Assembly (NCBI GenBank): GCA_965202625.1 | Contig: CBDBBI010000010.1 | Span: 1,280,001 to 1,344,000 of the forward strand | Origin: a bacterium | Lineage (GTDB): Bacteria > UBA8248 | Length of the DNA: 64,000 nucleotides | Reading direction: 5' to 3' | Part shown: one piece after another, positions 6,428 to 64,000 of the stretch | Numbering within the stretch: position 1 is the first letter of the stretch | How the letters are laid out: the number at the start of each line of letters is the position of its first letter | Notes under the pieces: generated by a model | What the model was told of the DNA's origin: nothing | What the model saw: only the letters and a program-made list of their open reading frames with translations | Databases searched by the model: none | Program-made: the position numbers and the translations under genes

Positions 6428-7306
6428 ATGGCGAAAGTAGTTGCTTTCCTGGGGCTGGGAAACATGGGCGCAGGCATGTCGGCGAACCTGGCGAAGGAGG
6501 GCTTTGACGTCCGCGGATTCGATCCGCTCCAATCCGCGCGCGATCGGGCGGCGTCCGCCGGCCTGAAAGTATTCGACACGGCGGCGGAAGCGGCGTCAAG
6601 CGCCGAGGTCATTTGCAGTTCGGTGCCGGAAGTCGCGCACGCGAGAGGAGCGTATCTGGGCGAGACCGGCGCGCTGGCGACCGCCCCTGAGGGCGCGGTC
6701 TGCTTCGACCTGTCCACCCTGACGGTCGAGGGCAGCCAGACACTCGCCGAGGAGGCGAAAAGGCGTGGGGCGCAATTTCTGGACACCCCCGTCAGCGGGA
6801 GCGTGCCCCACGCGAGGGCGGGAACCCTCGCCATCATGGTCGGAGGCGACGAGGCGGCACTCGAGGCCCACCGCGACGTCCTCGAGGCGTTCAGCGCATC
6901 GATTCATCATTTCGGCCCGAACGGGGCGGGCCTTCAGATGAAACTGGTGACGAACCACATCTTCGCGGTGCACATCTCCGCCATCGCCGAGGCACTGACG
7001 GTGGGAACGAAGGGGGGGCTGGACCCCGAGCGGATGGTCGATTTCCTGAAGGCGAGCGTCATACCCAAGATTCTAGAATACAAGGCGTCTCCCATGATCG
7101 CCAAGGACTACACACCCACGTTCACGGTGAACCTGATGCTCAAGGACTTACGCATCATCGCGGCGATGGCCGAGGGCGTCGGAGTGCCAATCCCCCTGTG
7201 TGCCGCCGCGCGCCAGGCGTACATGAGCGCGGCCGCCCTCGGTCACGGGGAAGCGGATCAAAACGCGATACTCGCCTTCTTTGAAAAGGGCGCCGGTATG
7301 GATTAG
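6428..7306 (+). CDS. 3-hydroxyisobutyrate dehydrogenase family NAD(P)-dependent oxidoreductase
   Basis: VAFLGLGNMG Rossmann motif, FLDTPVSGS, MKLVTN catalytic Lys, FTVNLMLKDL. Confidence 0.92.
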   Translation: MAKVVAFLGLGNMGAGMSANLAKEGFDVRGFDPLQSARDRAASAGLKVFDTAAEAASSAEVICSSVPEVAHARGAYLGETGALATAPEGAVCFDLSTLTVEGSQTLAEEAKRRGAQFLDTPVSGSVPHARAGTLAIMVGGDEAALEAHRDVLEAFSASIHHFGPNGAGLQMKLVTNHIFAVHISAIAEALTVGTKGGLDPERMVDFLKASVIPKILEYKASPMIAKDYTPTFTVNLMLKDLRIIAAMAEGVGVPIPLCAAARQAYMSAAALGHGEADQNAILAFFEKGAGMD

Positions 7307-7398
7307 CCTGCGCGCACGCGCAACCTATATTAATATTCCGCAGGTGCGCGGCGGACTTTGGGGCCGATGGACTTCCGCCGCCACGTGGCATGAGGCGC

Positions 7399-7428
7399 TT
7401 GCTATTCTTGAGTAGTTTAGTTTAGTAT
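7399..7428 (+). promoter_or_regulatory. Putative sigma70 promoter overlapped by an Rrf2 (IscR/CymR-like) operator
   Basis: TTGCTA-N18-TAGTAT in an AT-rich patch. ATTCTTGAGTAGTTTAGTTTAGTAT (7404-7428) matches 20/25 positions of the IscR type-1 consensus as I recall it (ATASYYGACTRWWWYAGTCRRSTAT). Confidence 0.45.
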
Positions 7429-7688
7429 TTAATCGAATTTTGGGTTCCCCGAATTTCTACCAGTCCCGAAACTCCGGGATGGTGAAATGCTCGCGCTAAC
7501 GAGAGACGTCCATCGTCTTTGGAAGGCTGCTTCCGGCCCCGATGGATGAAGACGGCGGCGAACGCAAAATGGCGCGTTGCGCGCTGGGTGGCCCCGGAAG
7601 CCGGGCTTTCAGCCCCGCAGCCTCGACAACGCGATCGTTTTATCTTTATCCAGCTCAGCGAACGCTGGACAGCGAAGGAGACGAGAGA

Positions 7689-8885
7689 ATGGCAAAGACA
7701 GGACGAGACCTGCTCGCCGCCGCGCGGAGCGAGGTGCCCGAGATCACGGCGGAGGAAGTAAAATCCGCCATGGACGCGGGCGAGGAGATGGCGCTCATTG
7801 ACGTGCGCGAACCCGACGAGTTCAGGGGCGGCTACCTGCCGGGCGCCGAGCACGTGAGCAGGGGGTTTTTGGAGCTCCAGATCGAAGGGGTCATTCCCGA
7901 CAGGTCAACGCCCATCGTCGCCTATTGCGCGGGTGGGGTGCGTTCGCTGCTCGCCGGCCAGGTCTTGCGGTCCATGGGCTATGGAAGCGTGAAGTCGATG
8001 GCGGGCGGCTACGGGAAATGGAAGGACCTGGGCTTTCCCGTCCAGGTCGACAAGCAGATGAGCGCCGAGCAGCTCAACCGCTACAGCCGCCATTTCCTGC
8101 TCTCTCAAATCGGAGAAAAGGGACAGGCCAAACTGCTGGACGCCAAGGTTGTCCTGATAGGGGCGGGCGGCCTGGGTTCTCCCACCGGACTTTACCTGGC
8201 GGCCATGGGCACCGGTGCCATCGGCATCGTGGACCTTGACGTGGTGGACATGAGCAACCTTCAGCGACAGATCATTCACACCAACGAGCGCGTGGGCACC
8301 TCCAAGGTGGAAAGTGCGCGGGCCACCCTCAACGCGCTGAACCCCGACGTGCGCGTCATCGCCCACGAGGAGAGGCTGAACAGGGAAAACGCGCTCGACA
8401 TCCTGAAGGACTACGACGTCATCGTGAACGGGGCGGACAACTTCCCCACCCGCTACCTCGTCAACGACGCGGCCGTGTTCCTGGGCAAGCCCATCGTCGA
8501 CGCCTCCATCTTCAAATTCGAGGGACAGGCCACCGTCTACCACCCCGCGGAGGGAGGCCCCTGCTACCGCTGCCTCTATCCCGAACCCCCGCCGCCCGGC
8601 ATGGTCCCCTCCTGCCAGGACGCCGGCGTTCTGGGTGCGCTTTGCGGCACCATGGGCTCCATCCAGGCAACGGAGACGGCGAAACTCATCGTGGACTTTG
8701 GCGAGCCGCTCATCGGCAAGCTCCTGATGTACGACGCGCTCAAATCACAGTTCAGGACGCTCAAAATCAGGCGGGACCCCGGTTGCCCCGTGTGCGGAGA
8801 CAGCCCCTCCATCACGCAGCTCATCGACTATGAGTTTTTCTGCGGTCTCACGGAAGCCCCCGCCGCCGCCAACGGAGGCCCATAG
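7689..8885 (+). CDS. moeB: Rhodanese-fused ThiF/MoeB adenylyltransferase (MoeZ-like)
   Basis: N-terminal rhodanese (LIDVREPDE...YCAGGVRS), then RYSRH, GAGGLG, SNLQRQ, CYRC and CPVC zinc motifs. Confidence 0.9.
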   Translation: MAKTGRDLLAAARSEVPEITAEEVKSAMDAGEEMALIDVREPDEFRGGYLPGAEHVSRGFLELQIEGVIPDRSTPIVAYCAGGVRSLLAGQVLRSMGYGSVKSMAGGYGKWKDLGFPVQVDKQMSAEQLNRYSRHFLLSQIGEKGQAKLLDAKVVLIGAGGLGSPTGLYLAAMGTGAIGIVDLDVVDMSNLQRQIIHTNERVGTSKVESARATLNALNPDVRVIAHEERLNRENALDILKDYDVIVNGADNFPTRYLVNDAAVFLGKPIVDASIFKFEGQATVYHPAEGGPCYRCLYPEPPPPGMVPSCQDAGVLGALCGTMGSIQATETAKLIVDFGEPLIGKLLMYDALKSQFRTLKIRRDPGCPVCGDSPSITQLIDYEFFCGLTEAPAAANGGP

Positions 8886-11534: not shown

Positions 11535-12680
11535 CTACTTGTGGCCGTATCTCGCAGGCAGGCCGTTGCCGTTGCATTCGATCTGGTCGCTCGCGCGCAG
11601 GTCGCCCGCGATGAACTCATCTATCATCTGGCGCGAGACGTAATCCGGCATCTGCACCGGCGGATGCTTCATCAAATATGCGCTCACGGGGTAGAGCGGC
11701 CCCGCCTCGCCCCTGTCGCGCGCGACGCGCGCCAGCCGAATGGCGTCGATGACGACGCCTCCGGAGTTGGGCGAGTCTTCCACAGAGAGGCGCGCCTCGA
11801 TATCGAGCGGCACCCCGCCGAAGCCCTCCGCCTCGATTCGCAAGAAGCATATCTTGTTGTCGCCCTGCCAAGGCACATAGTCGGACGGTCCGATGTGGAT
11901 GTTGTCGGCGTCCAGGGGCTCAGGCAACTGACTTTGCACGGCGTCGGTTTTCGAGATTTTCTTCGACTTCAGGCGAGAGCGCTCCAGCATGTTCAAAAAG
12001 TCGGTGTTTCCGCCCGTGTTCAGCTGATAGGTGCGCTTGAGTTTCACACCCCGATCCGCGCACAGCTTCACGAGCGCGCGGTGGAGGATGGTGGCGCCGA
12101 GTTGGGCCTTCACGTCGTCGCCCACCACCGGAATGCCCGCCTCAGTGAAGCGGCGCGCGATATCGGGGTTCGACACGATGAAGACAGGCATGCAGTTGAT
12201 GAAGGAGACGCCGGCCTCGAGAGCCGCCTCGGCATAGTGGCGCGCCGCCCGTTCCGAACCCACGGGCATGAAGTTCAGGAGTATCTCCGCTCCGCTGTCG
12301 CGCAACTCGGCCGCCACGTCGCAAGGCGCCGCTTCAGAGGGCAGAAAAGAGCGATCCGAGGCGTATTCCGCCATGTGGGCCGCCACCCCGTCGAGCACCG
12401 GCCCCATTCGCACGTTCACTCCATAGTCGGGCAGATTCTCCCAAATCGTCTTCGTGCAATTCGGCTTGGCGAAGGCTGCGGCGTGCAAGGGCTGGCCCAC
12501 CTTGCGGATGTCGATGTCAAAAGCCGCCGCGACCTGCACATCGTCCGGCCCATAGCCGCCCAGGTTCCGGTGCATGAGACCCAGTTCCTCTTCCGGATGA
12601 TGGCGATAGTATTCAATGCCCTGGAGCAGGGAACTCGCGCAGTTCCCGACGCCGGCGATGGCGATGCGAATCGGAGACAT
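11535..12680 (-). CDS. ino1: Inositol-3-phosphate synthase
   Basis: IAIAGVGNCASSLLQG, GDDVKAQLGAT, QLNTGGNTDFLNM, EDSPNSGG. Confidence 0.95.
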   Translation of the reverse strand: MSPIRIAIAGVGNCASSLLQGIEYYRHHPEEELGLMHRNLGGYGPDDVQVAAAFDIDIRKVGQPLHAAAFAKPNCTKTIWENLPDYGVNVRMGPVLDGVAAHMAEYASDRSFLPSEAAPCDVAAELRDSGAEILLNFMPVGSERAARHYAEAALEAGVSFINCMPVFIVSNPDIARRFTEAGIPVVGDDVKAQLGATILHRALVKLCADRGVKLKRTYQLNTGGNTDFLNMLERSRLKSKKISKTDAVQSQLPEPLDADNIHIGPSDYVPWQGDNKICFLRIEAEGFGGVPLDIEARLSVEDSPNSGGVVIDAIRLARVARDRGEAGPLYPVSAYLMKHPPVQMPDYVSRQMIDEFIAGDLRASDQIECNGNGLPARYGHK

Positions 12681-12911
12681 AGATGCGTTTCCTTTCTTGC
12701 CTTGCGGTCGTCTCAGCCCCGAGAGGCGTTCCCGAGGCGGAATTCATCAGTCAGGACTGCAGCCGCCAACCACGCACATAGGGATTCAAAGTTACGTCAA
12801 TGGGCGTGAATGATCGCTTCCACAGAAGGGCGACTATATCCCAAAATCGAGATTTTCTCCAAGAGCAGGAGAAGAAATGGTTCGGGACGCGCCCAAGCGC
12901 GGCGCGGCTGG

Positions 12912-13910
12912 CTAATAGAGTAGGCAGCGGACGAAGTGTCCGGGCGACACCTCCTTGAGTTCGGGCTCGTTCTCCTTGCACGTCGCCTTCACGTCCGGGC
13001 ACCTCGGATTGAAGCTGCACCCCGTCGGCAAGCGGTTCAAGCTGGGCACGATGCCCTTGATTTCCTCAAGGCGAATCCGCGCGCCGGGCTTGGCAGTGTT
13101 GAGTTTCGGTATCGAATGGAGCAGCCCCCGGGTGTAGGGATGCAGCGGGTTCCCGAAAATCTCCTCCGTCGGCGCCTCCTCGACTACCTTTCCGGCATAC
13201 ATCACGACGACGCGCTTGCACGTCTCGGCCACCAGCCCCAGATCGTGCGTGATGAGGATGACCGCGGTTCCCAAATCCTCCTGCAACTTGACCATGAGGT
13301 CAAGAATTTGTGCCTGGATGGTCACGTCAAGAGCCGTGGTCGGTTCGTCGGCCAGCAGGATTCTCGGGTTGCACGAGAGCGCCATGGCGATCATCGCACG
13401 CTGCCGCATCCCGCCGGAGAGCTGATGGGGGTATTCTCGCACCCTCTGACGCGGCAGGGGGATGCCGACGAGGTCGAGCATCTCGGCGGCCTTGTCCATC
13501 GCGTCTTTTTTCCGCATCCCCTGGTGGAGCATGACGGCCTCGGCAATCTGGAAGCCGACGGTGAACACCGGGTTCAGACTCGTCATCGGCTCCTGGAAGA
13601 TCATCGAAATGTGGTTGCCGCGAATCTCGCGCAGCTCCTTCGCGCCCAGCTTCGTCAGGTCGCGGCCCTCGAAGAAGATGCCGTCGCCGAATATCTCGCC
13701 CGGCGGCTCAGGAATGAGGCGAAGCACCGAAAGCGCCGTCACCGTCTTGCCGCACCCCGACTCGCCCACCACGCCCAGCGTCTCCCCCGCCTTCAGACTG
13801 TAGCTCACGCCGTCCACGGCGCGCACCGTGCCCTCCGGCGTGTGAAAGTGGGTGTGCAGATTCTTCAGTTCCAAAATCGTGTCGGTGCGGACGGCTGCGC
13901 CTTGGGCCAT
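12912..13910 (-). CDS. Oligopeptide/dipeptide ABC transporter ATP-binding subunit (OppD/DppD-like)
   Basis: GESGCGKT Walker [21 protein letters not shown]-terminal HPYT...GCSFNPRC. Confidence 0.95.
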
Positions 13911-14031
13911 GGGTAACCTCCTGACTCGGGGCTCAATCTCGAACAACCGATCATCAATCGCTCAATTATAGGGACACGGCGATCTGATTGTCCAGCCGAT
14001 CGGGGAAACCCCCGGAACCCCCCGCCGCCCG

Positions 14032-14670
14032 TCAGGAGGAGAGCGTCTCCCGCCCGTGGGGGCAGTCCACAAGCAAGGGACAATCCGCGCAGCGGGGGCC
14101 CCTAGCCGCACAGCGATTTCTTCCGTGGTGAATGAGCAGCGTCGAGAGCCGACCCCACCATTTCTTCGGCACGGCATCCATGAGCTGAAACTCGGCCCGC
14201 ACCGGGTCGCGGGTCGCTATCCAGCCCAGCCGGTTGGCCACGCGCAAGACGTGCGTGTCCACGGGGACCGTCGGCTGGCCATAAACCTCGTTCAGGACGA
14301 CGTTGGCCGTCTTGCGTCCCACGCCGGAGAGTGTCGTCAATGCGTCCATCTCGGCGGGCACCTCGCCACCGAACCTCTCATCAAGGCGAGCACAGCAGGC
14401 GCGTATCGCCCTCGCCTTCTGGCGATAGAACCCGCAAGAGTGAACCAGCCGCTCGATTTCGCCGGGGGCGGAGCGCGCATACGAGGCGGCGTCGGGATAC
14501 CGGGCGAAAAGAGCGGGGGTCACCCTATTGACCCGCGCGTCCGTGCACTGGGCGGAGAGCATGGTCGCCACCAGCAGCTCGAGCGGGCTTTCATAGCGAA
14601 GCGCGCAACGCGCCCCGGGGTAGGCTTTCTCCAGGGCGCGCAGAAGGCGCGCGGGCGAGGATGCGGACAT
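14032..14670 (-). CDS. nth: Endonuclease III
   Basis: LLVATMLSAQCTD, HhH LSGVGRKTANVV, VDTHV, C-x6-C-x2-C-x5-C Fe-S cluster. Confidence 0.95.
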   Translation of the reverse strand: MSASSPARLLRALEKAYPGARCALRYESPLELLVATMLSAQCTDARVNRVTPALFARYPDAASYARSAPGEIERLVHSCGFYRQKARAIRACCARLDERFGGEVPAEMDALTTLSGVGRKTANVVLNEVYGQPTVPVDTHVLRVANRLGWIATRDPVRAEFQLMDAVPKKWWGRLSTLLIHHGRNRCAARGPRCADCPLLVDCPHGRETLSS

Positions 14671-14802
14671 CTCCCTCCGACCTCCTTTGAGAATCGCGCG
14701 ATGCGTCCGGGCGTTCTTTTCAAAACCGACGGATTCGGGCTAGAATAGCAAGCGAAGCACGCAATCGCCTAGATGGAAGTGGAATGAGAGGAGAGAACTT
14801 CA

Positions 14803-15042
14803 ATGGCCGAACCTCGTATGGCCCAGAAATCGCCCTACATCCATACACAGGAGAAGAACGCGAAACTCGCTTGGTGCGCGTGCGGCATGAGCGCGTCCCA
14901 GCCCTTTTGCGACGGCTCGCACAAGGGGTCGGGCTTTCGCCCCATCGTGCTCGACGTCGAGGCGGGCAAAACTTACGCCTTTTGCGGCTGCAAGCGAACG
15001 GGCAACGCGCCCATGTGCGACGGTACCCATGCAAAACTTTGA
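14803..15042 (+). CDS. CDGSH iron-sulfur protein with two CDGSH motifs
   Basis: WCACGMSASQPFCDGSH and FCGCKRTGNAPMCDGTH. Confidence 0.92.
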   Translation: MAEPRMAQKSPYIHTQEKNAKLAWCACGMSASQPFCDGSHKGSGFRPIVLDVEAGKTYAFCGCKRTGNAPMCDGTHAKL

Positions 15043-57388: not shown

Positions 57389-58744
57389 TCACGCCTCGTC
57401 CGCCCCGCCGCGCGCCTGCAGCATGCGCGGGGTTTTTTCCACGCGAACGAGTCCCCCGTCCGCCTCATCCCCTTTCTCCTTCGGCGCGCTCCCGTAGTCG
57501 CTGAACTTTCGCGCGGAGACCATCACTCTCGATTCATAGGAGCCCACTGCCTTGTTGTAGGCGTCAACCGCCCTCCCCAACCCCCGGCCCATGGTGTCGA
57601 AGTGTCCCGCCAGCGTCTTGAGCCGCCCGTAAAGCTCTCCACCGAGCGCGCTCACGGCCTGGGCGCTCTCGGCCACTTTCTCCTGCCGCCAGCCGTATGC
57701 CACCGCGCGCAGAAGGGCGATGAGCGTCGTGGGCGTGGCCAGTATCACCTGCTTGCCCACGCCTTCTTCTATCAGACCGGGGTCCTGCTCGAGCGCCGCG
57801 CTGAAAAGACTCTCTCCGGGCAGGAACATCGCCACGAACTCAGGCGTGGATTCGCACTGATCCCAGTAGGCCTTGGAGCTGAGCCGGCTCATGTGGTCCC
57901 GAATCTGGCGCGCGTGATCTTGGAGGTAATCACGGCGCTTATGCTCATCCTCCGCTTCTATCGAGTTGAGATAGGCCTCAAGCGGGGCCTTGGCGTCCAC
58001 CACGACGTTCTTGCCGCCCGGCAACTTCACGATGAGGTCAGGCCGCAGGCGCGCGTCCTCCGAGGAAAACGTCTGCTGCTCCAGGAAATCGCAATGGTCC
58101 ACCATGCCGGCCATCTCCACTACGCGCCTGAGCTGCATCTCCCCCCAATGGCCGCGCACGCTCGGGGCGCGCAAGGCTTTGACGAGATTTCCCGTCTCCG
58201 ATTGAAGCGCCTTCTGCGCGCCCGCGAGAGATTTCAGATGCTCCGTGATCGCGCCATAGGCCTCTCGCCTGGCTTTCTCCAAACCCTCCGCCTGGTTCCC
58301 TACCTTGTCGAGCGATTCCCGAATGGGTGCGACCAGGCTCTCCACCGCCTTTTGACGCAATTCCAGGTCGCCTCTGGCCTCGCTTTGGAATTTCTCAAGC
58401 GTCTCTTTCGCCAAAACGAGAAAAGAGGAATTGTTGTTCTTGAGAGCGTCCGCGCTCATCGCGCCAAAGCTCTCGCGCATGTCCTCCGCCGCGCGGCGAA
58501 GCAGGTCGATTTTCTCCCCCGCTGATTTCTTCTCGTGTGCCAGATCAGATTCAAGGCGCGCGAGATCCGCGTTGAGGGCCGCGTTTTTCTCTTGCGCATC
58601 GGCGAGAGTGGCCTGGACTTCCGCTTTCTCCTCCTCCGCCCTCGCCAACATTCGGGACAGCCCTGCGGTGCGCGTCCCTGAAGCGCGCCAAACGATGAGG
58701 ATGAGAATGAGAGCAGCGCCCAAAGCGACGAACTCGACTTCCAT
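57389..58744 (-). CDS. rmuC: DNA recombination protein RmuC
   Basis: N-terminal TM, coiled coil, RGHWGEMQL, RPDLIVKLPGGK.VVVDAK, FVAMFLPGE, ATPTTLIALLR. Confidence 0.95.
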   Translation of the reverse strand: MEVEFVALGAALILILIVWRASGTRTAGLSRMLARAEEEKAEVQATLADAQEKNAALNADLARLESDLAHEKKSAGEKIDLLRRAAEDMRESFGAMSADALKNNNSSFLVLAKETLEKFQSEARGDLELRQKAVESLVAPIRESLDKVGNQAEGLEKARREAYGAITEHLKSLAGAQKALQSETGNLVKALRAPSVRGHWGEMQLRRVVEMAGMVDHCDFLEQQTFSSEDARLRPDLIVKLPGGKNVVVDAKAPLEAYLNSIEAEDEHKRRDYLQDHARQIRDHMSRLSSKAYWDQCESTPEFVAMFLPGESLFSAALEQDPGLIEEGVGKQVILATPTTLIALLRAVAYGWRQEKVAESAQAVSALGGELYGRLKTLAGHFDTMGRGLGRAVDAYNKAVGSYESRVMVSARKFSDYGSAPKEKGDEADGGLVRVEKTPRMLQARGGADEA

Positions 58745-59507: not shown

Positions 59508-60971
59508 ATGTTCAAGCGATTTAGAAACCTTGCCCGGGTGAACCCCTTTAAGCCCACGACGGCGATTTTTCCGGGCATCGACGCAGAGCGCATCGCCGCC
59601 GACCTTCGCCTTGAGGCGGAGGGAGAACGGAGGGGCGCGATGGACCAGCCGGATTCCTCAGAGGTGGGATTCGACTTGATCGAACGGAGGATCGTCGATT
59701 GCGTTAAAGAGCTCCGCCGCATGGGCCTTGGACATTTCGACGAGCATGAGGGCGCGTATGCCGACCGCATCGCACGAGCAGACAGTATATCGACGGACAT
59801 GCAAACCGCCACGCGCGACGCCGAAACCGATTTTATGATGGAGATCAACAGGTGGAGGGGCATCCTTGCGAACGAACGCAACGACCTCCAGCTCGTCGAC
59901 GAGGAATTCAAGCACTTCCGCCAGGAAAACCGCCTCAAGCGGACGGCACACGAGGGCGGCGGATTCTCCAAATGGCTCTTCTATTCACTCGGCATCCTGA
60001 TCGTGGAATCGGTGCTGAACGGCGTGTTCTTCGCCAACGCGCACGAACTCGGGTTGATCGGCGGCGTTTTCACCGCCCTCGGCATTTCGGTCATCAACGT
60101 CGGCGTCGCGGCGTGCATGGCATGGACAAGCCGGAATTTCAATCACTTCCGTATCGTCCGAAAACTCGTCGGAACGCTCTCCTTTCTGGCCGCCGTGGCC
60201 TTCGCACCAGTATTCAATCTTTTTGTGGCGCATTTTCGAAACGCCGCCGAAGCGGAAAAACCATGGAGCGAGGCCGCAGGCCATGCCTATCGAAACATCC
60301 TCGCTAATCCACTCGGTCTGGAAAGCATCGACGCGTGGCTTCTCGGAATGCTCGGAATCCTGGCGGCGACCATCTCCGGCTGGAAAACTTACGCCTCGGG
60401 CGACCCCTATCCCGGCTACGGGCGCGTATGGAGAAAAATTCACGACGCGCGGGAAGCCTACGCCCAGAGAAACGAAGAAGCGATTGACACGGTGACGGAG
60501 ACGCGCGACAAGGCGGTGGACGATCTCAAATCGGCAATTGACCACATGAAAGCGCAAATTGCGGACGCCCGCAACGCGGCCAACGGTCTGACCTCCCTTC
60601 GGGGCCAACTCGAACAGTTCCTTGAACAGTGCGACCAGAAAGTGAGCCTGTTGCTGACCACTTACCGGAACGCCAACAAGGGAAAACGCGCGGCGGCACC
60701 CCCGGCGCATTTTTCCAGGGATTTCCTCTTCGAACCATACAAAGCCGGACTATCGCCAGATGCTCAAAATACGCTCAACCAAAAAACGGCAGGGAAACTT
60801 GAAGAGAACATCGCACAAGCGATTGATCGCATCTATGATGCCTGCCAGAAGGCTATCGAATCCTTCAAGCCAATCGACGCCATTGAATCCGGAGCACCCG
60901 CCTTTCCCGATCTCCAGCCCGTTACCGTGACGAACGAGGGAGAAGAGGCGCCAAGCAGGGCGGGAGCTTGA
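59508..60971 (+). CDS. Hypothetical membrane protein: helical N-region, about 4 TM segments, coiled-coil C-region
   Basis: Hydrophobic stretches WLFYSLGILIVESVLNGVFF, LIGGVFTALGISVINVGVA, LSFLAAVAFAPVFNLFVAHFR, WLLGMLGILAATISG, then DPYPGY and heptad-rich helices. Confidence 0.8.
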   Translation: MFKRFRNLARVNPFKPTTAIFPGIDAERIAADLRLEAEGERRGAMDQPDSSEVGFDLIERRIVDCVKELRRMGLGHFDEHEGAYADRIARADSISTDMQTATRDAETDFMMEINRWRGILANERNDLQLVDEEFKHFRQENRLKRTAHEGGGFSKWLFYSLGILIVESVLNGVFFANAHELGLIGGVFTALGISVINVGVAACMAWTSRNFNHFRIVRKLVGTLSFLAAVAFAPVFNLFVAHFRNAAEAEKPWSEAAGHAYRNILANPLGLESIDAWLLGMLGILAATISGWKTYASGDPYPGYGRVWRKIHDAREAYAQRNEEAIDTVTETRDKAVDDLKSAIDHMKAQIADARNAANGLTSLRGQLEQFLEQCDQKVSLLLTTYRNANKGKRAAAPPAHFSRDFLFEPYKAGLSPDAQNTLNQKTAGKLEENIAQAIDRIYDACQKAIESFKPIDAIESGAPAFPDLQPVTVTNEGEEAPSRAGA

Positions 60972-61837
60972 TGGCTCGCCGCGGCGCCTCACGCCGGAGA
61001 CGCTCCCGCGCAAGAGCGGGACGCCCAATCCATCCGCTTGTGGGGGGCTTGCTCATCGCGTTTTCGATCCTCCTGCTCATCGGCGGCTTGGTCGCCATCT
61101 GGCCGAAAGAGGGACCCCAAGCCATGCTTGGCGCCTTGTTTAGCCTGTGGAATCCGACAGAACACAACAAGGAAACGCTCTGCCCCAAAACGGGGCCCGA
61201 AGCCGGAATCGTCATCCTGCTCGACTTGACGGATCGGATAGGCGCCACCCAACAGGCGCGGTTGCGTGACCTTCTCGAAAAGAAGATCGCCGACGCGCGC
61301 CAGAACACGCTTATCGCCGTGGGCGCGGTCGGATCCGCACCCGCCGAGCGCGGCGTAGATTTCGCCCTCTGCAAACCCATGGAAGAGAGCGCGGCGAATA
61401 CACTGTATCAAAACCCGCGTCTTGTAGCCGAGTCCTATGAAAAGCGCTTCCAACGTCCACTCAAGGCCAGTCTCGAAAAGATGCTGATCTTCCGAAGCGC
61501 GGAGCGCTCTCCGATCATGGAGTCGCTGCAAGCCGCGCTCGCCTCCACGCCCGGTTTTCTGGACGCCGCATATTCCCGCCGCGTCCTCATCGTCTCGGAC
61601 CTCCTCCAGCATAGCGCGGCTTTCAGCTTCTACCGAGGAGACACCTGGCGAAAATTCCAGCGTTCGCGCAACTTCGCACGACTCGCGCGAAGCCTTCATG
61701 GGGTGGACGTGGAAATTCTGCGTCTGCCGCGTCCCGAAGCGAAGATCGACTCCGCAGAAGTGGAGGATTTCTGGGCGAATTATTTCGATCAAGCGGGCGC
61801 GCGACGCGTTCGCAGCCGGATGCTCGGCGACCTGTGA
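60971..61837 (+). CDS. Membrane-anchored vWA-like protein
   Basis: Arg-rich N-terminus and one TM, IVILLDLTD (degenerate MIDAS), SPIMESL, VLIVSDLLQHS; TGATG coupling to the upstream gene. Confidence 0.7.
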   Translation: MARRGASRRRRSRARAGRPIHPLVGGLLIAFSILLLIGGLVAIWPKEGPQAMLGALFSLWNPTEHNKETLCPKTGPEAGIVILLDLTDRIGATQQARLRDLLEKKIADARQNTLIAVGAVGSAPAERGVDFALCKPMEESAANTLYQNPRLVAESYEKRFQRPLKASLEKMLIFRSAERSPIMESLQAALASTPGFLDAAYSRRVLIVSDLLQHSAAFSFYRGDTWRKFQRSRNFARLARSLHGVDVEILRLPRPEAKIDSAEVEDFWANYFDQAGARRVRSRMLGDL

Positions 61838-61841
61838 GTTC

Positions 61842-63041
61842 ATGATGGCGAACAGGATAAAACGCATTTACGACATATCGCCGCGCGATGCGGCGGACAA
61901 ATGGGCGCTTGGCCTCGCCTTCTTCCTGGGCGCGGGCGGCGCCTTCGCGCTCAAGCATTTAGGGGCACCTCCCCTTCTCGTCATGTTCTGGTCCGCATCC
62001 ATTCTTCTGGCATACGTGGCTGTCGCGTGGCTGCTCAAGCGCCTTCAGATTGAGGCGGAGACCATCGGGGACAACTGCTACTACCTCGGCTTCGTCTTCA
62101 CGCTCGCGAGCCTTGCCGGCACGCTCCACCTGCTTGGGTGGACCGAGGGGAAGGCTGACGCGATCCGCGACGTGATCTCCGGCTTTGGCGTCGCGCTCAC
62201 CTCGACCATCCTGGGTATCGTGCTGCGGGTATTGCTCATCCGCATGCGTCCTGACATCGTTGCCCGTGACCGTGAAGCCCGCAGAGAGCTTCATTTCGCG
62301 GTACGCGATTTTCGGGTAAACCTGTCGGCAAGCCTTACCGATCTCAAGCACTTTTCCGTCGAGACCGTGCAAGTCCTCTCCGAGCAGCGCGAGGAAATCC
62401 GCGCGGCGACCCGGGAGACCATCAAGGCGCTGACGGCAAGCATTGAAGAGCAGACGAAAATGGCGGGCGACGCGCTCACCGCCGCAGCCGACAAAACCGC
62501 GAAAGCAATTACCGGCGCGCTGACGAACGCCGCCTCCTCGCATGAGGAAATCCGGGTGACGACCCGGGAGACCACCAAAGCGCTGACGGCAAGCGTTGAA
62601 GAGCAGACGAAAATGGCGGGCGACGCGCTCACCGCCGCGGCCGACAAAACCGCGAAAGCAATTACCGACGCGCTGACGAAAGCCGCCGCCTCGCATGAGG
62701 AGTTTATCGCGCAGGTCGCCGGAATGCGTGAAGCCGTCGCCGACCTTGCGCGAAGGGAGTCCGAAATCCTCAAAACGCTCGTGGAGGACTCGACAAGCGT
62801 CTCCAGAGAGAGCGACAAGATGCAATCCGCGCTCGCGCGGCTCGCCGAGCGTCTTGAGGCGGTGTCGGCCAACCTCGACGCGGCGGCGAGCCGCGTTTCG
62901 GGTGAACTCGAGCCCGCTGCGAACACCATGGTGAGCGCGGTACTCGACGCGGGCGAGGCAATCCGCAAAATGACCGCCCAGGGAGCGCGAAGGGCCCCTT
63001 TCTGGCGACGGCTGCTGCCCCCCTGGCGGCGGCCCCGCTGA
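61842..63041 (+). CDS. MotA/TolQ/ExbB (ZorA-like) membrane protein with a long helical tail
   Basis: About 4 TM segments, GDNCYYLGFVFTLASL and ISGFGVALTSTILGI (resemble the MotA G.xGT and G.x.ALxTTxxG helices), followed by more than 250 aa of Ala/Thr-rich helix. Confidence 0.7.
   Translation: MMANRIKRIYDISPRDAADKWALGLAFFLGAGGAFALKHLGAPPLLVMFWSASILLAYVAVAWLLKRLQIEAETIGDNCYYLGFVFTLASLAGTLHLLGWTEGKADAIRDVISGFGVALTSTILGIVLRVLLIRMRPDIVARDREARRELHFAVRDFRVNLSASLTDLKHFSVETVQVLSEQREEIRAATRETIKALTASIEEQTKMAGDALTAAADKTAKAITGALTNAASSHEEIRVTTRETTKALTASVEEQTKMAGDALTAAADKTAKAITDALTKAAASHEEFIAQVAGMREAVADLARRESEILKTLVEDSTSVSRESDKMQSALARLAERLEAVSANLDAAASRVSGELEPAANTMVSAVLDAGEAIRKMTAQGARRAPFWRRLLPPWRRPR
62391..62696 (+). 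repeat. Intragenic tandem duplication, 2 x 153 bp (51 aa)
   Basis: EEIRAATRETIKALTASIEEQTKMAGDALTAAADKTAKAITGALTNAASSH followed by a near-identical copy starting at 62544. Confidence 0.95.
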
Positions 63042-63058
63042 GGAGGAGAGATCAGGAG

Positions 63059-64000
63059 ATGGCGCGCGATTCGCTTGCAGGTTTCACATCGGAAATCCAC
63101 TACCGGCGCGGCGCGATCATGGGGCTGACCGTCGCCGAAGCCTTCATGCTCGTGGCCTTCGCGCTGTTAATGCTGCTCGTGTTCTGGCGCCATGAAATAG
63201 AGGATGAATACAGGGAGGCCCGAGAACTCACCGAGCGCTTCTCGCCCGAGGAGCGGGCGGCGATAGCGGACCCGACGTCCAGGGACGCTTTGCTCGTATT
63301 GCTCGAACTTCAGGAGAAAAAATTTCACATCCAAAAAACGGCCCAGGCGCTCCTCTCAGGCGCGGTTCCCGTGGCGTCCGTTCGCCTTGCGGAACTGGAA
63401 ACCCGCGCCCGTCTCGTGGAGGAAGGCGTGCTCCGTCAGCTCGTCGAGGCCGCAGCTGTTTTGCCGCCGGAGCACAAAAGGACGCTCTCTCACCTCGTCG
63501 CGCTTCCCGACGCAAAGGAAACGATCGAGAAGATCGCTGCGCTTCAAACCGTGCTTCAAAAACGGCGCGCCGATGAGATCGCGGACGCACTCGCCCTCAA
63601 GGATTCCTCCAAACCGGACGCGCAGAAGATCATGGCATCACGGAAAAAAAAAGACGCCCAACTCCGCCGGCTTTTTGAAAAGGCAGCCCACTTACCGCTG
63701 GAGCAAAGGAGTAAACTTGCGGATTTGACCGAGCGCTTCCAATCCGGAGAACGGAGCGTCGATGAGGTCATGGACGCGCTCGCACTGAGGGATAACCTGG
63801 ATCCTTATGGTGAATACAGCAACGAGGCGCTGAAAAAAATAATTCAAGACCTCCGTGCTCAGGGAACGCGCGCGCGAAGCCGACTCGCTGAGGAGAAACA
63901 GGCGCGGAAGCGCCTCCTCGCCGACCTGCAGACTCAGCTCGGCGCCCAGATCGCTCAGGTTGGCGGGCGCATAGAGGCTACGGGCAAAATCGTAGTGCCC
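63059..64000 (+). CDS. MotB/ZorB-like protein, truncated by the right window edge
   Basis: Not in the ORF track; ATG 63059 after AGGAG: MARDSLAGFTSEIHYRRGAIMGLTVAEAFMLVAFALLMLLVFW (single TM with an acidic residue), a long helical linker, ending ...GGRIEATGKIVVP, which resembles the entry into an OmpA-like domain. Confidence 0.7.
   Translation, partial: MARDSLAGFTSEIHYRRGAIMGLTVAEAFMLVAFALLMLLVFWRHEIEDEYREARELTERFSPEERAAIADPTSRDALLVLLELQEKKFHIQKTAQALLSGAVPVASVRLAELETRARLVEEGVLRQLVEAAAVLPPEHKRTLSHLVALPDAKETIEKIAALQTVLQKRRADEIADALALKDSSKPDAQKIMASRKKKDAQLRRLFEKAAHLPLEQRSKLADLTERFQSGERSVDEVMDALALRDNLDPYGEYSNEALKKIIQDLRAQGTRARSRLAEEKQARKRLLADLQTQLGAQIAQVGGRIEATGKIVVP

Follow-up and report, generated by a model that had tools for sequence, protein, structure and literature searches.

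A four-gene Zorya relative whose ZorB-like anchor carries a nuclease: a candidate envelope-embedded system that may attack foreign DNA in the periplasm

A stretch of 64,000 nucleotides from a bacterium of the UBA8248 lineage (assembly GCA_965202625.1, contig CBDBBI010000010.1, positions 1,280,001 to 1,344,000 of the forward strand), analysed here over its whole length as "the window", ends in four co-oriented genes, p1 to p4, whose products appear to constitute a relative of the Zorya immune systems. To judge from their sequences, p3 (ZorA-like) and p4 (ZorB-like) very probably form an ion-driven unit of the Zorya type; p4 in addition carries a staphylococcal nuclease-type (SNase) domain, and p1 and p2 encode two further membrane proteins, one with four predicted transmembrane helices and the other with a fold predicted to be of the von Willebrand factor A (vWA) kind. 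The argument starts from observed features, i.e. the gene set, the identities of its domains, the synteny and co-occurrence of its genes, their patchy distribution, and the defence and mobile genes that lie beside many copies. For the reading as a whole, that of a conserved, mobile, envelope-embedded Zorya relative with a nuclease that attacks foreign DNA in the periplasm, the probability is put at about 0.45. Its parts differ in strength: a role in defence against phages or other incoming DNA, which is drawn from patchiness, mobility and neighbours, is rather probable, and cleavage of DNA in the periplasm is the preferred mechanism, held tentatively at somewhat short of even odds, because the design of p4 implies export of the nuclease, which reappears in each branch of the family. 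The four genes, all confirmed in the list of open reading frames (ORFs) of the window, are as follows.

59508..60971, + strand: p1, 487 residues; the ATG at 59508 fits the N-termini of homologues, and the longest ORF runs from 59430.
60971..61837, + strand: p2, 288 residues; this start fits the N-termini of homologues, and the longest ORF runs from 60968.
61842..63041, + strand: p3, 399 residues; the ATG at 61842 fits the N-termini of homologues, and the longest ORF runs from 61698.
63059..64000, + strand: p4, an ORF open at the end of the window, which holds the first 314 of its 602 residues.

The genes are spaced as an earlier reading made from the letters of the window (the sequence-only reading) had described them: the p1 stop codon TGA (60969-60971) shares a base with the p2 ATG (60971-60973) in a TGATG overlap, and gaps of 4 nt and 17 nt separate p2 from p3 and p3 from p4. 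Extension along the contig carries p4 867 nt past the window, to the window-equivalent position 64867 (7059-8867 in the fetched locus, L002). Chance cannot account for such an arrangement, since other genomes show this gene order again. A scan for promoters and terminators gave counts no different from those in shuffled sequence. A single metatranscriptome run yielded two short contigs that match 229 nt of p2 and 180 nt of p4 at an identity of at least 99%; these are assembled contigs for which DNA carry-over is not excluded, and they are thus no proof of transcription.

The link to Zorya is seen in p4, which over its full length consists of a transmembrane helix, a helical, repeat-like linker of ~250 residues, a peptidoglycan-binding domain and an SNase domain. 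The C-terminal OmpA domain that had been anticipated for the fourth gene is present in the contig extension and is of the OmpA/ZorB type: Pfam OmpA matches residues 319-432 above its cut-off (E 8.5e-8), the PADLOC ZorB2 model matches residues 280-452 (1.6e-34; ZorB1 2.1e-29), and the domain is 43% identical over 136 residues (E 3e-35) to that of the ZorB2 protein encoded elsewhere in the same genome. The single N-terminal transmembrane helix with an acidic residue, followed by a long linker, had also been read correctly, the residue being Glu27. It lies in a motif, YRRGxIMGLTVAE, that all but one of 31 aligned rows keep, Glu included (30 of 31), the odd one out being a copy disrupted by an insertion sequence; only in this motif is a resemblance of p4 to the most distant branch recognisable (26 residues, 65% identical). 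Homologues of p4 vary in length from 346 to 777 residues.

The second subunit, p3, is recognised less directly. It contains four hydrophobic segments, followed by a helical tail of ~230 residues, and displays two invariant motifs, GDNxYYLGFxFTL and SGFGxALxSTIxG; no Pfam family matches it above threshold. The PADLOC ZorA models match p3 at E 1.5e-6 to 6e-6 (ZorA2 at 2e-6 over residues 108-272), and the motor family PF01618 scores 18.8 bits (cut-off 22.9; E 0.0024) at about residues 73-130, which are the last two helices; the genome's bona fide ZorA2 scores a similarly sub-threshold 18.1 bits. Among 58 diverse relatives of p3, PF01618 matches 16 (best 2.9e-5) and ZorA2 matches 22 (best 8.3e-9), and in two of three other system-bearing genomes the p3 homologue is the sole match to the ZorA2 hidden Markov model. 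When aligned by hhalign to the N-termini of ZorA2 proteins, the last two p3 helices fall in register on ZorA transmembrane helices 2 and 3 (P 0.004-0.005), and 13% of the members among the language-model (Atlas) neighbours of p3 have PF01618. The tail matches the tail regions of the PADLOC ZorA models and of solved ZorA chains (8qyd_A at 1.9e-7 and 8vvn_C at 3.9e-7) and also helical-repeat families; coiled-coil matches dominate when the full-length p3 profile is compared with the PDB, and BLASTP against the genome's own ZorA finds similarity in the tail alone. On these several weak but concordant matches p3 is placed, as a remote relative, in the MotA/ExbB/ZorA superfamily, and the description of the third gene as MotA/ExbB-type, with hydrophobic segments and a long helical tail, is borne out. 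The p3 family comprises 1801 representatives (clustered at 50% identity) at E<=0.001, part of which score by the tail alone, and 137 at E<=1e-30; the GDNxYYLG motif is found in 144 of the 150 best representatives.

Part of the tail is duplicated in the window copy.

62391..62701, + strand: tandem duplication in the p3 tail, 153 bp x 2.0 copies, 93% identity, a 51-residue repeat (Tandem Repeats Finder).

Contigs of a sponge metagenome (run X6) show a backward joint in this repeat, at window positions 62380-62434, which points to copy-number variation of the repeat. The same run shows, in the p4 linker at window positions 63565-63764, a skip of 198 nt with nine other letters in its place. The two helical spacers, p3 tail and p4 linker alike, thus appear to differ in length from strain to strain, which hints that their lengths are under selection.

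Together p3 and p4 would assemble as an ion-driven, stator-type complex, possibly of 5:2 stoichiometry; its protonatable residue would be Glu27, in the transmembrane helix of p4, and its anchor on peptidoglycan the ZorB-type domain. The pair shares with MotAB, ExbBD-TonB and TolQRA the order of an A gene followed by a B gene and an acidic side chain in the helix of the B subunit; small or hydroxyl residues (T87, S121/T122) occur in the last two helices of p3, as in A subunits of 5:2 motors. The pair differs from these motors in that the p3 helices have scarcely any cytoplasmic domain between them, and in Glu rather than Asp in the B helix. The long helical spacer of p4, which would be periplasmic, recalls domain II of TolA. 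Flagellar, Ton and Tol partner genes are absent, as the sequence-only reading had noted for the vicinity, and the three bona fide PF01618 genes of this genome lie outside the window. As in Zorya, a MotA/ExbB-type A subunit with a long tail is paired with a B subunit of ZorB type that has a single transmembrane helix; a nuclease belongs to the system, its occurrence is patchy, and defence or mobile genes lie nearby. Unlike in Zorya, p3 is far diverged from ZorA and has one extra N-terminal hydrophobic segment, two additional membrane proteins, p1 and p2, are apparently obligate, and the nuclease is of the SNase type and fused to the periplasmic end of p4, whereas ZorE (an HNH protein) and ZorC/D are cytosolic. 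Two accounts of Zorya structures describe three subtypes, with cytosolic partners (PMC11890865, PMC11946911). A canonical Zorya II system is found in the same genome (ZorA2 1.4e-85, ZorB2 2.6e-92, ZorE2 2e-56; contig ~1708550-1711666, or 8550-11666 of the fetched locus, L040), its ZorE standing beside its own ZorAB, 365 kb from the system of the window. Beyond this canonical system, on the opposite strand, are two ORFs (12444-13757 and 13745-14857 of the same fetched locus) with an N-terminal hydrophobic segment and a pentapeptide-repeat-like sequence.

The SNase domain of p4 is recognised by Pfam (PF00565) at residues 485-584 with E 3.9e-7 and 30.9 bits, against a cut-off of 21. In an alignment of 19 fused homologues the residues of the motifs D-x-D-T, R-L-x-G-I-D, E and Y-x-R are kept, together with four Cys; these positions we take to be the catalytic and Ca2+-binding residues D21, R35, D40, E43 and R87 of the Staphylococcus aureus nuclease. 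DxDT, RLxGID, xE and the Arg of YxR agree with the SNase family at large, from which the domain differs in being tethered to a motor subunit or to the membrane; the window copy has GIDGLE where most homologues have GIDAPE. The four conserved Cys suggest disulfides in what would be an exported domain. Among 31 genome loci the nuclease is fused to p4 in 19, encoded by an adjacent gene in three, and not found in nine, of which three end at a contig edge; of the 27 loci with enough flanking sequence, 21 have an SNase no more than 7.5 kb away. In the distant branch (loci L105, L108, L120 and L123) it is a separate gene, either upstream or downstream of the operon, and these separate proteins have an N-terminal hydrophobic anchor. 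The nuclease thus recurs in all branches and yet is not universal; since it is missing from some loci, it may not be the core effector. Since, moreover, some of those loci otherwise look intact, two less probable alternatives may be put forward, one in which p1 is the effector and one in which the machine has a role in the envelope outside immunity.

In the first alternative, which is considered distinctly unlikely, the p3 tail, by rotating or rearranging upon activation, would gate p1, the resulting ion leak or depolarisation would lead to abortive infection, and the nuclease would be an optional addition. It draws on the fact that p1 to p4 are universal and the SNase is missing from six of the 27 well-flanked genome loci, one of them L003, the closest relative of the window copy, and it draws further on features of p1 itself. 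The AlphaFold2 (AF2) model of p1 (predicted local distance difference test, pLDDT, 86.9) consists of an N-terminal helical hairpin, four transmembrane helices and a C-terminal helix of 90 residues; p1 is modelled as an inner-membrane protein, with the hairpin, and indeed both long helical arms, predicted to be cytoplasmic, as is the p3 tail. The alignment of homologues shows invariant polar residues within the predicted transmembrane helices (E167, N171, N197, N237 and R244) and an invariant DPYPGYG-type motif after the fourth. p1 belongs to no family in Pfam, NCBIfam or PADLOC, and none of the 45 homologues found has a Pfam domain. A Foldseek search of the model against the PDB gave no match at E<=0.001, and a wide VIA structural scan gave only generic helical bundles, among them ExbB (Z 8.4), TolQ (8.0) and the alpha-pore-forming toxins ClyA (11.8), YaxB (8.9) and AhlB (8.7). 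The toxins would suit a pore, but all these Z-scores are inside the noise level stated for helical proteins, and oligomerisation of p1 or its contact with p3 is unsupported. The presence of the nuclease in most lineages, including the most distant, argues that the nuclease matters. Relatedness of p1 to p3 was also considered, and hhalign shows no relation between them. A predicted complex of p1 with p2 scored 0.02 against a mark of 0.32, a value that says nothing about binding in either direction.

p2 has an Arg-rich N-terminus, a single transmembrane helix, a short linker and a domain that the sequence-only reading had called vWA-like, a call now upheld by structure prediction: the AF2 model (pLDDT 89.4) gives 106 Foldseek matches in the PDB at E<=0.001, the best of which are all vWA domains (Rpn10, BatB, TFIIH p44/Ssl1 and integrin I; probability 1.00, template-modelling scores 0.3-0.57). 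p2 matches no family, VWA included, in the Pfam, NCBIfam, PADLOC or PHROGs libraries, and 82 of the 83 homologues found are without a precomputed Pfam domain. The PHROGs search gave only coiled-coil-type matches, e.g. to spanin and tail proteins. A cluster resembling the metal ion-dependent adhesion site (MIDAS) of vWA domains is invariant or nearly so (D85-x-T87-D88 after strand 1, S180, and D210 after strand 4), and differs from what we take to be the canonical motif, DxSxS...T...D. A pair of Cys, C71 and C134, is conserved. The transmembrane segment has no invariant or near-invariant residue in 44 sequences, conservation starting only at L70/C71/P72. These features suggest that the vWA domain is periplasmic and possibly a metal-dependent binding domain. 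p2 has the same combination of a transmembrane anchor and a vWA domain as BatA and BatB, and BatB (3ibs) and a Bacteroides aerotolerance-related protein (4jdu) are among its best structural matches; it differs from these in the lack of a sequence-level match, in DxTD rather than DxSxS, and in having no MoxR ATPase or Bat genes nearby. Two observations on p2 homologues may be added. A 414-residue protein, P0080, joins a Pfam OmpA domain to a C-terminal part that resembles p2 (56% identical across 39% of p2); either a genuine fusion or an artefact of assembly may lie behind it. In two Rhodobacter-type loci (L032 1141-2409 and L033 8001-9275) p2 is 422-424 residues long, its vWA domain being interrupted midway by ~140 inserted residues.

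The second alternative is a Tol/Ton-like, proton-driven trans-envelope machine without a role in immunity, in which the vWA protein and the p4 spacer would transmit force or position and the nuclease would serve DNA scavenging, turnover of biofilm matrix or control of DNA uptake, or the machine as a whole envelope maintenance. Membrane-tethered vWA proteins of unknown function, encoded beside TolQR-like motors, have been put forward as force transducers (PMC12204202), and p2 is likewise an inner-membrane vWA protein encoded beside a gene of the MotA/TolQ family. Of the two published families, however, one has a TonB/TolA-like transmembrane helix with an SHLS/His motif and a lengthy disordered linker, and in the other a transpore helix with an Asp takes the place of TolR, whereas the p2 helix has neither SHLS/His nor Asp, is followed by a short linker, and occurs together with a MotB/ZorB-like subunit; nothing in those families corresponds to p1 or the nuclease. 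Only housekeeping genes neighbour about half of the related loci, that of the window among them, and in one plasmid copy the gene just upstream encodes a penicillin-binding protein. Exported SNase homologues are common in bacteria outside immunity. Machinery of this kind fits poorly with a distribution confined to ~4% of the genomes of one order and two of 51 in the phylum of the window, with a context that differs within one genus, with carriage on plasmids and beside integrases, transposases and named defence systems, and with a peptidoglycan-binding domain that is specifically of the ZorB type. This alternative is considered rather unlikely.

The case for a conserved and mobile system rests on 31 genome loci, 80 metagenome loci and one IMG/VR contig that were fetched, in more than 100 of which the order p1-p2-p3(-p4) recurs. 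In the genome loci p2 is upstream of p3 in 30 of 30, p1 is upstream in 26 of 27 and p4 is downstream in 28 of 28; in the metagenome and viral loci the corresponding figures are 59 of 64 for p2, three of the five misses being due to an 8-nt overlap that the counting criterion left out, and 38 of 38 for p1. p4 was matched there with the window's own sequence in 25 of 37, the 12 misses belonging mostly to the distant branch. One distant copy (L105) has in the place of p4 an ORF of ~302 residues with the same transmembrane motif and a C-terminus that by eye is OmpA/MotB-like, and at that position an ORF of about this size is also present in L108, L120 and L123. A survey of 401 species genomes of the alphaproteobacterial order of a Paracoccus host found p3 in 17, p1 in 17 and p2 in 18; all three are adjacent in the same 16 genomes (~4%), and the single matches in four more are weak or degraded singletons. 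From these sequence counts, which agree with the four-gene synteny first proposed, p1-p2-p3 appears to be an obligate module. In the phylum of the window the system was found in two of 51 genomes, with different flanks in the second. Homologues of p2 are present on 24 plasmids (PLSDB), whose hosts are Paracoccus, Rhizobium, Sinorhizobium, Microvirga and Tistrella, and 11 of the 24 are typed as conjugative. An example is pRL11 of Rhizobium johnstonii 3841 (record 282843-290347; locus L155), where the system occupies RL_RS31080-31095 and the region is annotated as three hypothetical proteins, an OmpA family protein and a thermonuclease family protein, the last (RL_RS31100) being a separate gene on the opposite strand. 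Directly upstream of this plasmid copy is a gene for the penicillin-binding protein PBP1A. The IMG/VR contig (L123) holds a distant copy, its viral origin being taken from IMG/VR.

Plasmid carriage raises a third possibility, namely cargo of mobile elements directed at other mobile elements, which in the manner of entry exclusion or plasmid competition would destroy conjugative or transforming DNA, not phage DNA, in the periplasm. The 24 plasmid records with their 11 conjugative members, the MobA relaxase, integrases and transposases that flank several loci, and the failure to find a phage genome carrying the system all accord with it, and the periplasm is a transient residence of transforming DNA. 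Most copies, however, are chromosomal, the neighbours are typical anti-phage systems, and computationally the idea is indistinguishable from anti-phage defence, being a sub-case of the periplasmic nuclease reading; as a separate explanation it is very unlikely.

Degraded copies were also observed. One (L008 6835-14391), the source of the exceptional row in the p4 alignment, has an IS1595-type transposase at the p1 position and a p4 split by ~2.4 kb; another (L017 5130-6158) has no ORF for the OmpA part of p4; and a lone p2 remnant with an internal stop is found at G055:C4:932435-933211. Insertion of the cassette between conserved flanks was considered and set aside: no relative in the same genus has both window flanks together, and the flanking GPP34 gene is multi-copy in genomes of that genus and only ~50% identical.

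The neighbourhood was surveyed in 30 diverse loci, taking up to two ORFs upstream and up to three downstream, 138 in all after one glutamate synthase was dropped for its size. By Pfam, about half of the loci have restriction-modification (R-M) components, integrases, transposases, a relaxase, Cas2, SIR2 or helicases nearby, and integrases, transposases or the MobA relaxase adjoin nine of them. PADLOC matches (E<=1e-8, with ABC-ATPase look-alikes set aside) comprise R-M of types I, II, III and IV, Dsr1, Uzume, PD-Lambda-1, QatC, Cas2, SoFic and DRT-nitrilase. Individual loci with PADLOC neighbours include the following.

L020: Uzume and type II R-M.
L025: type I R-M and QatC.
L105: SoFic, HsdR and an HNH protein.
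L111: Dsr1.
L023: PD-Lambda-1.
L024: Cas2.
L120: DRT nitrilase.
L053: PDC-S11.

At L105 there is among these also a gene that by eye is DUF3883-like, and a few kb downstream of the system are a second, small SNase-like ORF (12233-12670) and a large SMC/AAA-like ORF (12954-14546); its surroundings therefore constitute a dense defence island. In the window itself the genes downstream of p4 are GPP34 and a glycosyltransferase. Two genes upstream of the system is an RmuC-family gene (57389-58744, - strand) with an N-terminal transmembrane helix, which matches the PADLOC model RTasRmuC at 1.1e-52 and probably is housekeeping because no reverse transcriptase is nearby.

The defence-island enrichment that had been suggested as a check on the sequence-only reading is found by one count and not by the other. 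Defence matches were given by 22 of the 138 flanking ORFs, at 14 of the 30 system loci, as compared with seven of 136 ORFs and six of 28 loci, mostly lone methyltransferases and generic regulators, at 28 arbitrary control places treated by the same script and taken from seven system-bearing genomes only. By ORFs the difference is significant (Fisher's test, p 0.005).

Against the periplasmic defence reading weigh, first, features of this comparison: the difference is not significant by loci (p 0.056), the narrow source of the controls limits it, and a stricter count that separates the two sets widely (12 of 30 system against one of 28 control loci) used a criterion set after seeing the data. 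The remaining half or so of the related loci have housekeeping neighbours only, and the copy in the window is not in a defence island, one of its ten neighbours matching PADLOC, and that one the generic RmuC. Second, the motor assignment of p3 has its own weak points: besides falling below the PF01618 cut-off, p3 reaches an hhalign probability of only 7-9% against ZorA2, and its kinship to motors is called remote because a narrow, N-terminal p3 profile found no MotA, ExbB or ZorA chain in the PDB, only chance matches to ribosomal S8. Third, there are departures from Zorya. In E. coli, ZorB has an essential Asp26 and a binding domain that joins the transmembrane helix without a linker (PMC11946911), as compared with the invariant Glu27 and the ~250-residue linker of p4, and none of the cytosolic partners ZorC+ZorD, ZorE or ZorF+ZorG is encoded here. 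Fourth, the absence of the SNase from well-flanked loci, already described, tells against it as the executing part, p2 matches none of 50,697 phage records, and on the usual view phage DNA passes through the periplasm in a protected conduit.

With these points allowed for, the periplasmic defence reading would run as follows. Perturbation of the envelope by a phage or other incoming DNA would be sensed through the peptidoglycan-bound p3-p4 motor, as is thought for Zorya; p1 and p2 would act as a module, for sensing or regulation, that connects with the cytoplasmic p3 tail; and the Ca2+-type SNase, on the periplasmic end of p4 or, in other lineages, on a separate membrane-anchored protein, would attack the foreign DNA. 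All partners would then reside in or beyond the inner membrane, as against the cytosolic nucleases that receive the signal in canonical Zorya. The most specific form of this idea is somewhat unlikely: a fourth Zorya-type immunity operating outside the cytoplasm, whose stator carries its nuclease on a length-variable stalk and destroys DNA crossing the envelope with the help of the sensor pair of vWA and four-helix proteins.

The partner pair had been described at the outset as unlike the known Zor partners, and p1 and p2 do match no model of ZorC, D, E, F or G nor any other PADLOC model; no such pair was found in the literature searched. That literature holds no description of the gene set, with the supplements of the Zorya papers and of PMC12204202, which may list members, outside the search; Zorya and vWA were found together in PMC12204202 alone. 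A MotAB phylogeny leaves Zorya aside and, in the part available, speaks of no nuclease and no vWA (PMC12505986). The sequence-only reading had named the lack of a motor fold, the lack of synteny, or a match to a described system as grounds on which it would fall; motor-type similarity and recurrent synteny were found, and the gene set matched no system already described in PADLOC or the literature searched. Of the roles that this reading had proposed, defence or envelope stress, the former is favoured by gene neighbourhoods and patchiness.

No immune system other than Zorya is known to employ an ion motor of the flagellar stator type, and the sensing and signalling of Zorya are still being worked out. 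Only three sets of Zorya partners are described in the parts of the two accounts that were available (PMC11946911, PMC11890865). The locus adds to these a widespread variant, with more than 100 loci and 24 plasmids and with hosts that include Paracoccus and the genetically tractable Rhizobium johnstonii 3841; its ZorB-type anchor itself carries a nuclease, and its partners p1 and p2 are of no described family. If the system is defensive, the motor module would be one that can be re-wired for action in the envelope, and foreign DNA would be open to attack before it reaches the cytoplasm; if the periplasmic reading in particular is true, this would be the first nucleic acid-targeting immune system in the periplasm, and 5:2 motors could deliver an effector as well as a signal. 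If it is not defensive, it would represent a new class of motor-coupled envelope machine, linked to the proposed vWA force transducers. Either way, p1, p2 and the Glu-bearing B subunit provide concrete handles that can be tested.

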